NCBI GenBank assembly: GCA_031963005.1
Contig: JASSUL010000005.1
Coordinates: 82,939 to 146,938, forward strand
Source: Mycoavidus cysteinexigens
GTDB lineage: Bacteria; Pseudomonadota; Gammaproteobacteria; Burkholderiales; Burkholderiaceae
Length of the DNA: 64,000 nt
Direction of reading: 5' to 3'
The translations under genes were made by a program, and so were the position numbers. The notes under the pieces are model-generated. The model was not told the DNA's origin and searched no databases. It was given only the letters and a program-made list of their open reading frames with translations. The stretch's first letter is position 1. The number at the start of each line of letters is the position of its first letter. Below are positions 18,147-56,021 of this stretch, piece by piece.

Positions 18147-18210
18147 TTAAGAATTTGTTTAGTATTTTCCTAAAGAGGGCCCTTTTGGGAAATACTAAAT
18201 AGGTTCTAAG
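18147..18210. repeat. Family D palindrome between carB and carA
   Basis: TTAAGAATTTGTTTAGTATTTTCC..GGGAAATACTAAATAGGTTCTAAG around a central AGAGGGCCCTTTTG. Confidence 0.7.
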
Positions 18211-22281: not shown

Positions 22282-22383
22282 TAGACCTTTTTCGCAAGCC
22301 CGTAGCGGCGTTATTCCTTCTTGCCGTACTGTGTGTGCTGTCTGCGTCGGAATTCCTTGCTACGGGCTTGCGAAAAAGGTCTA
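22282..22383. repeat. Family B palindromic element (copy B1)
   Basis: TAGACCTTTTTCGCAAGCCCGTAGCGG..GGAATTCCTTGCTACGGGCTTGCGAAAAAGGTCTA; outer stem of about 25 bp. Confidence 0.9.
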
Positions 22384-23207: not shown

Positions 23208-24134
23208 TCAGTCAATTTCGAATTCATTCGAAGGAGCTCTACTTTTTAGTTCTTTGTAGCCATAGATTTTAACTTTTAGTCTTTCGTAGCCACTATAGAT
23301 GCTACTTTTTAATCTTTTGTAGCTAGTATAGACGCTATTTTCTAATCTTTTGTAGCCAATATAGACGCTATTTTCTAGTTTTTTGTAGCTAGTATAGATG
23401 CTACTTTCTAGTTTTTTGTAGCCAGTACCCTGCTTTGAACTCTTAGATTGAGTGCTCTGTACATATGTGGCGCTCTGGGTAATTTGGTGTGCAGGCGGCT
23501 CCGATACGTATGATTGACTATCGTTTTGCTGTCCTCTTCCTGCATTACTACTCTGTTGGGTATAGAGATCGTGCTGATGGGTATTGTGTACTAGATTATT
23601 AATCGTATGTTGTTGAAGATGAGACCCGTGTTGAGTGGTATCACTTAGTTGCAGCACTGATTCAGTATTTGCAGCTGGCTTATAGTTCTTCGAATAGGGG
23701 CCCGTTGGTGGCCATATAGGTGGTGGCAGTACGTATGCATCGTTTTGCTGCCTTCCTCCCGCATTACTACTGTGTGGGGTATAGAGATTGTGTTGATAGG
23801 TATTGTGTACACGATTATTCATCGTGTGTTGTTGAAGATGAGGCTCATATTGAGTGGTATAACTTTGTTGCGACGCTAATCCAGTATTGTTTTGAAAAGA
23901 TGTAGCTGGCTGATCGTAGTTTATTGGTATTTCTGTTTGAACAACCTCTTGAAATGTAGGGATTGGGCTATCACTGCCTTTATTTCTACGCCCTATCAAA
24001 GAAGATAGACTGCCAGCATGTGTTTCAAAAGAAGAGGCTATTCTATTTTTAAACTTATTAAAGGTCGTTTTTGGCTCGTTAGATGGATTAGATAGAAATG
24101 GTCTTGTATTTTTTGTTTTTTCTATGTAGGACAT
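23208..24134 (-). CDS. Orphan Q/N/H/T/Y-rich repeat protein, 308 aa; candidate effector
   Basis: GGAG about 9 nt before the ATG; internal duplication of about 55 aa; six C-terminal 11-residue YxxL repeats; I recognise no family. Confidence 0.7.
   Translation of the reverse strand: MSYIEKTKNTRPFLSNPSNEPKTTFNKFKNRIASSFETHAGSLSSLIGRRNKGSDSPIPTFQEVVQTEIPINYDQPATSFQNNTGLASQQSYTTQYEPHLQQHTMNNRVHNTYQHNLYTPHSSNAGGRQQNDAYVLPPPIWPPTGPYSKNYKPAANTESVLQLSDTTQHGSHLQQHTINNLVHNTHQHDLYTQQSSNAGRGQQNDSQSYVSEPPAHQITQSATYVQSTQSKSSKQGTGYKKLESSIYTSYKKLENSVYIGYKRLENSVYTSYKRLKSSIYSGYERLKVKIYGYKELKSRAPSNEFEID
23244..23423 (-). repeat. Tandem 33-bp coding repeat (about 5.5 units) encoding the 11-residue units GYKKLESSIYT / SYKKLENSVYI / GYKRLENSVYT / SYKRLKSSIYS / GYERLKVKIY / GYKELK
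   Basis: Read directly from the translation and the DNA periodicity. Confidence 0.85.
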
Positions 24135-24803: not shown

Positions 24804-24885
24804 TTGTCTACCTAGCTCAACGCTCATGAATGAGTTCGAATCAGCCATATCTGAGCTTCCTTCATTTAAGCAGCCTATACCCCGC

Positions 24886-25137
24886 TAATAACTTCACTGA
24901 TGTTACGCAGGTATTCAAAAAGACCGTGGTCGTCATGTTGGGGTTCCTTCGTCACCCCAACCTACGAAAATGGGTAAGTGAAAGAGATTCATCCAACTCT
25001 ACCAACCACCAGAAAAAGCAAAGGACAGTAGGTTGGGGTGACGAAGGAACCCCAACATGCATACCACCGACTTCTAATCTCTGCGTTCTACTGATTAATA
25101 ACTCGCCATCCTACAGCGTGCGTAACATCAGTAACTT
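24886..25137. repeat. Family A MITE-like element, full-length subfamily A1 (copy iii)
   Basis: Termini TAATAACTTCACTGATGTTACGCAGG / TGCGTAACATCAGTAACTT; both core arms are perfect. Confidence 0.9.
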
Positions 25138-25152
25138 AAATCGCGTTTTTTG

Positions 25153-26943
25153 CTACTCTCCCAAATTCAAGATAGCTAAAAATGCTTCTTGGGGAATTTC
25201 TACTCCTCCGACTTGTTTCATGCGCTTCTTCCCTGCTTTTTGTTTTTCTAATAGTTTTTTCTTGCGGGAGATGTCGCCTCCATAGCATTTTGCTAAAACG
25301 TTTTTTCGCAATGCTTTAATATTCTCGCGGGAGATAATCGTTGAGCCAATGGCGGCTTGAATCGCGACGTCGAACATCTGCCGTGGAATGACTTCTCGCA
25401 TTTTTGCCGCGATCTCACGGCCTCGCGACTGGCTTTGTGAGCGATGGACGATGAGCGATAAGGCATCGACCTTGGTGCCATTAATCATCATATCGATTTT
25501 TACTACATCGGCAGACGCATATTCTTTAAATTCATAATCCATAGACGCATAGCCTCTAGAGATCGATTTAAGTCGGTCAAAAAAGTCGAGTACGATTTCC
25601 GCCATGGGAATGTCATAGGTCAGCTGTAACTGCCTACTGTGATATTGCATATTGATCTGCACACCCCGTTTTTGTGTACACAAGCTCATTATTTGGCCGG
25701 CATATTCTTGCGGCAGATAGACATTCAGTCGAACTAAAGGTTCGCGAATGCTCTCGATTTTTGAAGGGTCGGGCAATTTGGAAGGGTTTTCAATTTTTAT
25801 TACTTCGCCATCGCGCTGCACCACTTCATAAATCACGGTCGGGGCAGTCGTGATTAATTGCATTCCAAATTCGCGCTCAAGACGCTCTTGGACAATGTCC
25901 ATATGCAGCAAGCCTAAAAAGCCGCATCGAAAGCCGAATCCTAGCGCCTGGGATGATTCCGGCTCATATTGCAGGGAGGCATCGTTGAGTTGCAATTTTT
26001 CAAGCGACTCACGGAGCGCTTCGTATTGATTGGATTCAATAGGGTAAAGGCCCGCAAACACCTGCGGCTTCACTTCTTTAAAACCTGGAAGGGGCGTACT
26101 GGTTGGATTGCGCGCTTGCGTGATGGTATCTCCAACACGAGCCGCTTTAAGCTCTTTAATACCGGCGATAATAAAACCGACTTCTCCCGCGCTGAGTACA
26201 GCGCAATCCAACGCTTTAGGCGTGAATTTTCCAAGGCGTTCGACCAAAAACTGTGCGCCATTGGCCATAAAGCGAATGGTCTCTTTCGGTTTCAGCGTGC
26301 CTTGCACAACCCGCGTGAGTACGACCACGCCTACATAGGGATCAAACCAAGAATCTAAAACCATCGCCGCTAATGGCGCTTGCGCATCGCCTACTGGAGG
26401 AGGAACTTGTGCGATCAATGCCTCTAGCACATCAGCAACACCCTCGCCGGTTTTCGCACTACATCGCACTGCCTCTGTAGCATCAATACCGATCACATCG
26501 CCAATTTCTGCTATCGCATTTTCAGGATTCGCGGAAGGCAAATCGATTTTATTAAGAATAGGTACGACCTCTACCCCTAACTCTAAGGCGGTATAGCAAT
26601 TTGCAACGGTCTGCGCCTCCACCCCTTGACTCGCATCCACGACTAATAATGCGCCTTCACAAGCGGATAAAGAGCGGCTGACTTCATAAGAAAAATCGAC
26701 ATGTCCGGGGGTGTCGATTAAATTTAAATTATAGGTTTCTCCATCTCGCGCTTTATATTGGAGTGCCGCCGTTTGCGCTTTGATGGTAATACCCCGTTCA
26801 CGCTCCAGAGCCATTGAATCGAGCACTTGCGATTCCATTTCACGATCAGAAAGCCCTCCGCACATTTGGATAATGCGATCTGCCAGCGTTGATTTACCAT
26901 GATCAATATGGGCAATGATCGAAAAATTACGAATGTGTTTCAT
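25153..26943 (-). CDS. lepA: Elongation factor 4 (LepA)
   Basis: [23 protein letters not shown].. GTPase; an alternative ATG lies 12 nt upstream at 26955. Confidence 0.96.
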
Positions 26944-29091: not shown

Positions 29092-29202
29092 TAGACTTCT
29101 TTCGCAACCCCGTGGCGGCGTCATTCTTCCCGTTTTTTTACATTAAGTACAGTGTACTGGCAGCAAAGGAATTCCTTGCTACGGGGTTGCGAAAGAGGTC
29201 TA
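29092..29202. repeat. Family B palindromic element (copy B2), between acpP and fabF
   Basis: TAGACTTCTTTCGCAACCCCGTGGCGG..GGAATTCCTTGCTACGGGGTTGCGAAAGAGGTCTA. Confidence 0.9.
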
Positions 29203-29388
29203 TTGATCTGCAGAACCTGTTCAAAGTTTTCCAATTGGACCTCTATCCCAAGACTATAAAAAGGGTCCACCCTCGGAAAAGCAGGCGCGTAGGATTGCCG
29301 TGTACTTTAACACGATAAGTCCTAAGACACTGCAATCCGCAAAGATGAACCCTGAAGATAGTCCATTTGGGGAAATGGTTAACGGCTT

Positions 29389-29637: not shown

Positions 29638-29743
29638 TCCTTGCCTCCAACGGTCAATTCAAAAAATAAAGGCGCGCATTCTAGCAGAGGTTGGCTGATG
29701 GAAAATCACTTCGTAAAGTCATTTTTTCAAAATGCCGCATGCT

Positions 29744-29902
29744 AGGGCGTGTCTACAATGGTTCAAAAGGGCCCATATCTGGGGAAGCAGGAGCGCAGGG
29801 ACCGGAACTGTACTTCTAGTACAGTGAGGATCCCGAGCACCGCACCCCATGTTTATCCAATCCGCAAAGAGAGGTTCTTTTGGGCCATTGTAGACATGCC
29901 CT
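29744..29902. repeat. Family C palindromic element (copy C1), between fabG and acpP
   Basis: AGGGCGTGTCTACAATGGTTCAAAAGGGCCC..GGTTCTTTTGGGCCATTGTAGACATGCCCT with a central ACTGTAC..GTACAGT hairpin; homologous to 50128-50270. Confidence 0.85.
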
Positions 29903-29998
29903 ACGCGCCATAATAAGCAATAGTTCAATATCTACGCATCTTCTGCGTACATCTTTCTATTTGCAAAATAGTGCAACAAAATTCGGTACTGCTGCTCT

Positions 29999-34167: not shown

Positions 34168-34274
34168 GTAGAGCCAAGAAGCACTCTACATCAATAGGAC
34201 TTCAGGCTCTTCGCGAATCTGTTCCCGCTTCCAACCATGCTCTCCCATAATGCGTGGGACGTACACGGAAAGAT

Positions 34275-34310
34275 AAGAACCTTTTTGAGAGACTCCAAAC
34301 AGGTTCTAAG
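34275..34310. repeat. Family D short palindrome just downstream of rpmF
   Basis: AAGAACCTTTTTGAGAGACTCCAAACAGGTTCTAAG, near-identical to 1049-1086. Confidence 0.7.
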
Positions 34311-35451: not shown

Positions 35452-35697
35452 TTAATAACTGATGTTATGCAGGCATTCAAAAAGACCGTGGTCATCATGT
35501 TGGGGTTCCTCCGTCACCACCAACCTACGAAAATGGGTAGGTGAAAGGGATTCATCAAACTCCACCTACCACTAGAAAAGGCAAAGGACGGTAGGTTGGT
35601 GGTGAGGCACGAACCCCAACGTACGTACCACCTACTTCTAATTTTTGCGCTCTACCGATCAATAACTCGCCTTTCTACAACCTGCGTAGCATCACTT
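35452..35697. repeat. Family A MITE-like element, full-length A1 (copy iv)
   Basis: Collinear with 24886-25137, including the central GGGTAGGTGAAAGGGATTCATCAAACTCCACCTACCACTAGAAAAGGCAAAGGAC segment. Confidence 0.9.
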
Positions 35698-42287: not shown

Positions 42288-42402
42288 AGAGTCCGTTCAT
42301 AATCTCAAAAAATCACCCTTGAGGTGGTTATGTTGGGGTGAGGAATTGAATTAAATACGGAACCCCAACACAACCCACTTTTAATGATTAGGAACAGATT
42401 CT
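42288..42402. repeat. Family A MITE-like element, A2 with an internal deletion (copy v); its right terminus overlaps the rodA stop codon
   Basis: AGAGTCCGTTCATAATCTCAAAAAATCACCCTTGAGGTGGTTATGTTGGGGTGAGG..GGAACCCCAACACAACCCACTTTTAATGATTAGGAACAGATTCT. Confidence 0.85.
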
Positions 42403-50008: not shown

Positions 50009-50127
50009 TCGCTTTTTCAAATAAGCGCTTTAGGCGGATGCATAGATTCTCTTGACGATCGTACCTTTTATCTACGATGCGCTATCAAGGAGGCAGCTTT
50101 ATGCATTTCGAAAAAAGGAAATAACGT

Positions 50128-50270
50128 AGGGTGTGTCTACAATGGTTCAAAAGGGCCCATATTTGGGGGAGCAGGAGCGCAAGGACCAGAACTGTACTCA
50201 AGTACAGTGAGATCCCGAGCACCGCACGACCTCAAAGATGAGTTCTTTTGGGCAATTGGAGACACTCCCT
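50128..50270. repeat. Family C palindromic element (copy C2), between gatC and gatA
   Basis: Collinear with 29744-29902. Confidence 0.85.
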
Positions 50271-53606: not shown

Positions 53607-53700
53607 TAGACCTCTTTCGCAGCCCCGTAGCAAGGAATTCCTTTGATGCCAGTACAACTTGTACGGTGAGGAGCCGCTACGGGGCTGCGAAAGAGGTCTA
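53607..53700. repeat. Family B palindromic element (copy B3; interior inverted relative to B1 and B2)
   Basis: TAGACCTCTTTCGCAGCCCCGTAGCAAGGAATTCC..GCCGCTACGGGGCTGCGAAAGAGGTCTA. Confidence 0.9.
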
Positions 53701-53720
53701 TTGACGAATCGGATACATTA

Positions 53721-55874: not shown

Positions 55875-56021
55875 GTAGGTTGGTGGTGACGAAGGAACCC
55901 CAACATGCACGCCGCGGCATCCTTGATGATCCGCTTACGATTATCTAAAAGCAGAAATTAAAAATCTGCTGTATGCATGTTGGGGTTCCGTATTTGATTC
56001 AATTCGTCACCGCCAACCTAC
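55875..56021. repeat. Family A-derived element with permuted arm order (copy vi)
   Basis: GTAGGTTGGTGGTGACGAAGGAACCCCAACATG comes first and CATGTTGGGGTTCCGTATTTGATTCAATTCGTCACCGCCAACCTAC last, the opposite of other copies. Confidence 0.8.

Follow-up and report, generated by a model that had tools for sequence, protein, structure and literature searches.

We consider it highly probable that family A, a palindromic repeat dispersed through the genome of Mycoavidus cysteinexigens, is a population of GTAG-tagged REPs organized as REPIN- or BIME-like inverted dimers, comprising about 110 REPs that are most likely immobile relics, the REP-associated tyrosine transposase (RAYT) not having been found in the source genome (G000). 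Mycoavidus are Burkholderiaceae endosymbionts of fungi of the Mortierellaceae. Family A is a REP/REPIN/BIME family of the RAYT type; the kind of element is already known, and the family itself is a new member. The assignment rests on the GTAG tag with its hairpin together with the flanking of RAYT genes by the same repeats, and these place family A with the REPs and not in a new class of MITE. An earlier note on this DNA had correctly named REPs as the closest concept, but did not recognize the sequence as any of the repeats that it named; the core, read on the other strand, is GTAG plus a hairpin, the REP signature, and it adjoins RAYT genes both in congeners and in bacteria only distantly related.

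Within the window, that is, the whole 64-kb stretch of DNA analysed, the 31-nt core gave five matches at up to three mismatches, against an expectation of zero from shuffled sequences, and a repeat search connected all eight listed family A loci through direct and inverted families. The core was present at each of the eight, every hairpin being verified by coordinate, and all eight proved intergenic when the ORF list was combined with NCBIfam names for the neighboring genes, among which are prmA, pyrD, mutS, lepA and a TonB-dependent receptor gene. As the note had stated, no transposase lies within the window; an Rfam search of the window returned tRNA only, with no match to family A. The description of a dispersed, non-coding, nested palindrome was borne out by alignments and folds, and alignments likewise backed the division into two structural subfamilies, A1 and A2.

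For the A1 group, alignment upheld two full-length copies, one truncated copy and one short form; hairpin coordinates and strands are given here on the strand that reads GTAG. The first full-length copy (24886-25137) lies just downstream of the lepA stop codon (25153) and consists of a left arm beginning CTGATGTTACGCAGG, REP(-) 24937-24965, a 62-nt spacer, REP(+) 25028-25056 and a longer right arm ending in TGCGTAACATCAG; its 46-nt arms at 24920-24965 and 25028-25073 are 89% complementary, with 62 nt between them. The second (35452-35697), between the stop codon of the TonB-dependent receptor gene and a yceD-like gene, is a heterodimer in which REP(-) 35499-35528 carries the GACGGAGGA loop and, across a 62-nt spacer, REP(+) 35591-35620 carries the GAGGCACGA loop. 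The truncated copy (63303-63444, minus strand) retains a single degenerate REP at 63369-63397(+), whose stem carries a two-sided compensatory change, GTTAGGG...CCCTAAC replacing GTTGGGG...CCCCAAC. The short REPIN (2140-2272) has A1-type arms, with REP(-) 2170-2199, an 18-nt spacer and REP(+) 2218-2246; it is situated between prmA and pyrD and ends 12 nt ahead of the pyrD start codon.

The A2 group, defined by its AGAACCNGTTCAYAATC termini, was also upheld by alignment. One element (3841-4000) has the terminal inverted repeat (TIR) CTAAGAACCAGTTCACAATC, REP(-) 3877-3905, an 18-nt spacer, a long-loop REP(+) at 3924-3966 and a degenerate right end. A TIR-bounded singlet of 115 bp (42288-42402), with convergent genes on either side, holds one long-loop hairpin (42329-42370) whose GTAG tag is mutated to TATG. 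The complete element of 166 bp (57809-57974) runs from AGAACCTGTTCATAATC to GATTATGAACAGGTTCT and contains a long-loop REP(-) at 57853-57894, an 18-nt spacer and REP(+) 57913-57941. The copy at 55875-56021, previously called permuted, is real, but is explained as a tail-to-tail dimer of the same modules, composed of REP(+) 55875-55904, a 74-nt spacer and a long-loop REP(-) at 55979-56021, again with convergent genes on either side. Its spacer combines sequence of the A1 right arm with sequence of the A1 left arm, an arrangement like that of alternating BIME arrays. An ORF of 151 amino acids at 24830-25285 (+) extends across the first A1 copy and shares sequence with the lepA 3' end, and is therefore probably spurious. 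When translated in frame the REPs read M-L-G-F-L-R-H-P-N-L, and can give rise to false gene predictions in this genome as well as in others.

The unit common to all of these copies is apparent on the strand opposite to that of the core, which reads GTAG-G-TTGGGGT-(loop)-ACCCCAA-C. Each REP comprises GTAG-G, an 8-bp stem (GTTGGGGT/ACCCCAAC, often with a T bulge) and a loop that is either 9 nt long, of two main kinds (GACGAAGGA and GAGGYACGA), or 21-22 nt long, giving REPs of 29-30 nt as standard and 41-43 nt for the long-loop variants. A single REP is predicted to fold into the 8-bp stem and 9-nt loop at -7.9 kcal/mol, and no run of T residues follows the hairpin. A GTAG tag followed by a hairpin is the defining signature of REPs (Di Nocera et al. 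2013; PMC3733652).

Genome-wide, adjacent REPs are nearly always inverted and their spacings are quantised: head-to-head pairs (CCTAC-N-GTAGG) have spacers of 18 nt (11 cases) or 62 nt (8 cases), and tail-to-tail pairs a spacer of 74 nt (8 cases). These arrangements account for A1 (left arm, REP(-), 62 nt, REP(+), right arm), for the short form, which has the A1 layout with an 18-nt spacer in place of the 62-nt one, and for the supposedly permuted copy. Since the dimers are inverted and their spacers fixed, each can fold either as two small hairpins or as one long hairpin, and folding predictions agreed with this claim of the note: the A1 element is predicted to form one long hairpin at -61.7 kcal/mol (z = -12.3), and z-scores for the dimer long-hairpin folds were -10.6 and -12.3. 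Inverted dimers, conserved spacers and the long-hairpin fold are the marks of REPINs and BIMEs.

The search was extended to the whole assembly (2.2 Mb in 28 contigs, 45% G+C, 99.4% complete, smallest contig 2.5 kb), where family A was found genome-wide, with about 110-116 tagged hairpins. A tagged-hairpin pattern gave 116 units at 79 loci compared with 2 in the reversed genome, and a second, independent pattern gave 109 REPs compared with 0 in the control. The two commonest REP forms are present in 22 and 15 identical copies. By a crude ORF model, 74 of the 79 loci are intergenic, and the counts in tandem, convergent and divergent spacers (45/23/6) departed from those expected from intergenic length (43/12/19; p = 9e-5). 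The REPs prefer the 3' ends of genes and shun promoter regions, like REPs elsewhere. The spacer between prmA and pyrD has REP elements in four species, with differing partners, orientations and loops, and this differing content at an orthologous site indicates turnover; the coding DNA at this site is about 70-72% identical between G000 and the congeners G002-G004, and A1 copies are 76-86% identical between genomes. In the same spacer of G003 and G004, a REP seems to have its GTAG tag overlapping the prmA stop codon, TAG.

A search for a RAYT with the same repeats, which the note had proposed, gave a divided result: none was found in G000, and RAYTs flanked by the same REPs were found in congeners. 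The RAYT model used was NCBIfam NF047646 ('REP-associated tyrosine transposase'), with a cut-off of 80 bits. One RAYT each, at 193-203 bits, was present in four of the six congeners (G002, G003, G004 and G006); REPs abut the gene in G002, G003 and G006, whose flanks are readable, and the G004 RAYT lies at a contig end. Among ten distant genomes examined, six have one RAYT flanked by the family A REP, namely those of a Desulfobacter, an Accumulibacter, a member of the Rhodocyclaceae, an unclassified gammaproteobacterium and two Chromatiaceae. The Desulfobacter gene is an ORF of 168 amino acids with inverted doublets of the exact REP on both sides, scoring 199 bits on NF047646. On the Pfam Y1_Tnp model the same protein scored only 22 bits, so that a search with this model alone came close to overlooking the cognate enzyme, and the family A REP was missing from all of the best Y1_Tnp loci; the NCBIfam model together with a protein query resolved the matter.

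Across the RAYT alignment the HUH histidines (H57 and H59) and the catalytic tyrosine (Y126, in a YxHxNPV context) are invariant. The G006 RAYT matched the solved structure of E. coli TnpA-REP (4ER8) with E = 5e-42, and the Desulfobacter homologue shares about 49% identity with E. coli RayT. Distinct from its RAYT, G006 also encodes a canonical IS200-type Y1 transposase (contig C2, 54202-54561; 156 bits on PF01797) without family A REPs at its flanks.

In G000 there was no match to Y1_Tnp, none to NF047646 at E-values up to 1, and no tblastn match to the congener RAYTs. The remaining feature of a REPIN or BIME system, a cognate RAYT that has these REPs at its flanks and shares a genome with them, was thus not found in G000. 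In G002 and G003 the RAYT has a pilin gene on one side and two cytochrome c genes on the other; the corresponding site in G000 is contiguous on one contig, about 165 bp long, and contains neither RAYT nor REP. G000 lacks the genes that neighbor the RAYT in G006. Taken together, the lack of any RAYT or Y1 transposase and the empty, contiguous site make an orphan REPIN population, now immobile, the most likely state of G000.

An active population, with a RAYT that exists but falls in an assembly gap or on a discarded short contig, is unlikely. None of the 28 contigs is shorter than 2.5 kb, and a repeat-bracketed RAYT of about 0.5 kb could sit in a gap; that the G004 RAYT lies at a contig end indicates that regions of RAYT plus REPs break assemblies, and the many identical copies of the two commonest REP forms would also suit this reading. 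Against this, completeness is 99.4%, the site syntenic with that of G002 and G003 is contiguous and empty, the neighbors of the G006 gene are missing, and searches at every E-value tried gave no fragment of a RAYT. In addition, G001, a near-closed assembly, also has no RAYT and yet has 262 REPs, which indicates that RAYT-less Mycoavidus genomes are real; G005, a single contig, likewise has none.

REP numbers were compared across the seven Mycoavidus genomes. The three without a RAYT have 109 (G000), 262 (G001) and 19 (G005) REPs, and the four with one have 382 (G002), 652 (G003), 545 (G004) and 57 (G006). Within the four genomes that share A1, the RAYT-less one has 109 REPs versus 382-652 in the others, that is, 3.5-6 times fewer. 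This lower number fits the erosion of REPINs after RAYT loss that has been documented (bioRxiv 10.1101/2021.07.10.451892) in RAYT-less or inactivated lineages, including some E. coli strains, Neisseria gonorrhoeae and Pseudomonas chlororaphis clades, where REPs likewise persist after the loss as a population smaller than that of RAYT-bearing relatives. Loss of the RAYT-plus-REP unit ('REPtron') by deletion is described in PMC3733652, as are head-to-head and tail-to-tail dimers. Two differences from the RAYT-less lineages were seen. First, genus-wide copy number does not track RAYT presence, G006 having a RAYT and 57 REPs and G001 no RAYT and 262. Second, no extra sequence erosion was measurable in G000: mean pairwise identity of A1 was 0.80 (n = 7) there and 0.81 (n = 19) in the RAYT-bearing G002. 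As A1 is equally diverse in the two, decay is visible in copy number only. A literature search found no paper on Mycoavidus repeats.

The A2 elements are REP singlets or dimers inside a TIR of 17-20 bp, CTNAGARCCTGTTCATAATC; A2 is thus a REP or REPIN nested within a second palindromic shell. A classical MITE requires TIRs, duplication of the target site and a parent IS. The family as a whole, or A2 at the least, could be read as such an element, moved by a DDE transposase through its TIRs, with the REP hairpins as passengers or later insertions. The TIR itself lends some weight to this: G000 has 147 A2-type termini at up to three mismatches, making 49 bounded elements of discrete lengths: those of 38-60 bp are empty, those of 100-115 bp hold a single tag-less hairpin, those of 153-187 bp hold a REP dimer, and others contain unrelated interior modules. 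The TIR is present in G000, G001 and G006 and weakly in G005 and is absent from G002-G004, and A1-type elements occur in G000 and in G002-G004, a roughly opposite distribution that makes G000 the sole genome among the seven with both designs. The flanks of the 49 elements, however, show no direct repeat and no consistent complementarity, hence no target-site duplication, and no TIR pair in G000 encloses a longer element or a transposase ORF. A candidate parent of 846 bp between TIRs proved to be lipB with a separate element on each side.

No parent IS for either type of terminus was found in G000. A1, which lacks the A2 TIRs, ends in an inverted repeat of 13 nt by which the palindrome is continued, and alignment of its ends revealed no consistent target-site duplication. 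The RAYT flanks of congeners, moreover, carry REPs and not the TIR. The MITE label given in the note therefore did not hold, A1 having neither parent IS nor consistent duplication and A2 having true TIRs with neither target-site duplication nor parent IS, and we regard movement as a classical MITE as improbable, a little more so than an active population. Because elements free of REPs are enclosed by this TIR as well, some of the A2 architecture may belong to a different mobile system.

Several other repeats were observed in the course of this work. A third family (containing GGGGGAGCAGGAGCGCAGGGACCGGAACTGTACT) occurs in the window at 29743-29905 and 50125-50198, and elsewhere in the genome at C21:16161-16304, C24:42038-42190 and C3:70945-71102. 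Its interior module is elsewhere in the genome enclosed by a TIR beginning AGAACCTGTT, the same as that of A2, which indicates that the TIR shell carries several unrelated modules. Palindromes of 37 nt (TAAGAAYCTTTTTGRGAGACTCCAAACRGGTTCTWAG) at 1050-1086, 34274-34310 and 18174-18210 lie directly after stop codons and have ends resembling the A2 TIR; judged by these ends, they may be minimal, TIR-only relatives of A2. Family B, a palindromic repeat of about 100 bp (TAGACCTCTTTCGCAGCCCCGTAGC...AAGGAATTCCTT...), is present in both orientations at 22282-22383, 29092-29206, 53607-53704 and 58220-58325, and a 33-nt tandem repeat of at least six units (23262-23427) lies within an orphan ORF (23208-24134).

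That the repeats owe their presence chiefly to selection as cis-acting RNA or DNA elements (terminators, mRNA stabilizers or protein-binding sites) and are not products of transposition is very improbable: the strong bias toward gene 3' ends, the stability of the predicted hairpins and the one copy with a compensatory stem change would agree with it, but the family has no Rfam match, no T-run after the hairpin, a 30-fold variation in copy number among congeners and differing content at orthologous sites, and its association with RAYTs across phyla indicates a mobile origin.

For family A as a REP population, a mode of movement may be proposed by analogy with E. coli TnpA-REP/RayT. The RAYT, an HUH/Y1 enzyme, would bind the REP hairpin on single-stranded DNA at the replication fork, read the 5' GTAG, and cut and rejoin beside the hairpin; by the same analogy, cutting and rejoining would copy REP dimers into new intergenic sites at a very low rate. 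With the RAYT encoded in four congeners and not in G000, the approximately 110 REPs here would most likely be immobile relics that are inherited vertically. They may be tolerated mainly at gene 3' ends, where, speculatively, they would act at most as mRNA 3' hairpins.

Family A has the features by which REPs are known, being a short imperfect stem-loop palindrome with GTAG at its 5' foot, in high copy and mostly extragenic. As in the E. coli REP/BIME system with RayT (TnpA-REP, YafM; PDB 4ER8), a GTAG(G) tag lies 5' of a short imperfect hairpin, the repeats are mostly extragenic, at gene 3' ends, alternating in orientation with fixed spacers, and a single-copy HUH/Y1 RAYT is flanked by REPs, for family A in congeners. 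Unlike in E. coli, the arms beyond the REP are longer (elements of 133-250 bp), loops of 21-22 nt occur and no RAYT was found in G000; the stem and loop sequences of the two systems are unrelated. With the REPINs of Pseudomonas fluorescens SBW25 (Bertels and Rainey 2011) family A shares a unit that is an inverted REP doublet forming one long hairpin, singlets that resemble decayed doublets, and a within-genome diversity (about 80% pairwise identity for family A) of the kind expected of slow replicators. It differs from them in that its RAYT is near the E. coli type and not in the Pseudomonas clade, and in that its master REP is shared across phyla and is not lineage-specific.

Compared with the GTAG REPs and 'TIRYT' repeats of Di Nocera et al. 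(2013; PMC3733652), family A has the same tag, both dimer types, a preference for heterodimers, and a stem and loop within the ranges stated in that paper; the family A REP also contains GGGGTGAC, which fits the 'TIRYT' motif GGGGWSAS. Tyrosine-transposase genes of Accumulibacter phosphatis are listed in the same paper, which reports no repeat family in that species.

Correia elements (Neisseria), ERIC and RPE, which the note had invoked in concept, resemble family A as small, dispersed, palindromic, non-coding repeats, but are set apart by their descriptions. Correia elements carry TIRs of 26 bp together with a TA duplication, the ERIC element of enterobacteria is 127 bp long, and RPEs are found inserted in frame within genes; to our knowledge none has a GTAG-tagged hairpin tied to a RAYT. 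Two further candidates were rejected. Integron attC sites were dismissed on inspection, as GTTGGGG/CCCCAAC misfits GTTRRRY/RYYYAAC and the elements are dispersed and not in cassette arrays, and a cyanobacterial small dispersed repeat or MITE was dropped, the conserved genes being of Burkholderiaceae, to which the LepA of this genome is closest, and the repeat itself pointing to Mycoavidus.

The distribution of the REP beyond Mycoavidus was surveyed by an exact-match scan with a 29-mer, which gave at least 117 stretches, in Mycoavidus, Chromatiaceae, Rhodocyclaceae/Accumulibacter, Nitrosomonadales, Methylococcales and two Desulfobacterales. The exact REP, loop included, and the two-loop heterodimer design are common to Mycoavidus and Desulfobacter, and both flank RAYTs in these two and in Accumulibacter, Rhodocyclaceae and Chromatiaceae. 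No copy of the REP was present in any of 400 further Pseudomonadota genomes, sampled evenly so as to cover the 211 remaining genera of the sample. Between Desulfobacter and Mycoavidus the RAYTs are 65-73% identical, versus 50% for the housekeeping GTPase TypA. Among PLSDB plasmids no RAYT was closer than 57% identity to the Desulfobacter protein. A RAYT tree of 146 columns supported only a Mycoavidus group (94/91) and a Chromatiaceae-type group (96/98), and did not resolve the REP-A-flanked RAYTs as a single clade.

Identity of the REP across phyla, combined with so patchy a distribution, suggests that the RAYT has spread horizontally together with its REPs, which would be the simplest reading of that identity. 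On these sequence comparisons, we see the chances as about equal that a RAYT and its flanking REPs moved horizontally among Betaproteobacteria, Gammaproteobacteria and Desulfobacterota, the REP remaining unchanged, and founded new REPIN populations, including one in an obligate endofungal symbiont. If true, this would supply a specific case against the idea that REPINs are inherited almost only vertically and have a vanishingly small chance of becoming established once transferred. That horizontal transfer may be dominant on very long time scales is already accepted as a possibility by Bertels et al. (2017; PMC5581495), so that the result would refine, and not overturn, current views.

The chief use of these results is in annotation: the label REP or REPIN can now be given to about 80 intergenic loci of this genome and to hundreds in its congeners, and spurious ORFs that read through REPs, such as that at 24830-25285, need not be kept. 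The genus Mycoavidus, moreover, lends itself to comparison on a small scale, with seven species that share one REP, four of them with a RAYT and three without, and from 19 to 652 REPs per genome, a natural set that suits tests of REPIN population growth and erosion in reduced endosymbiont genomes. The identity of REP and RAYT across phyla, in turn, bears on whether REPIN-RAYT systems are strictly vertical.
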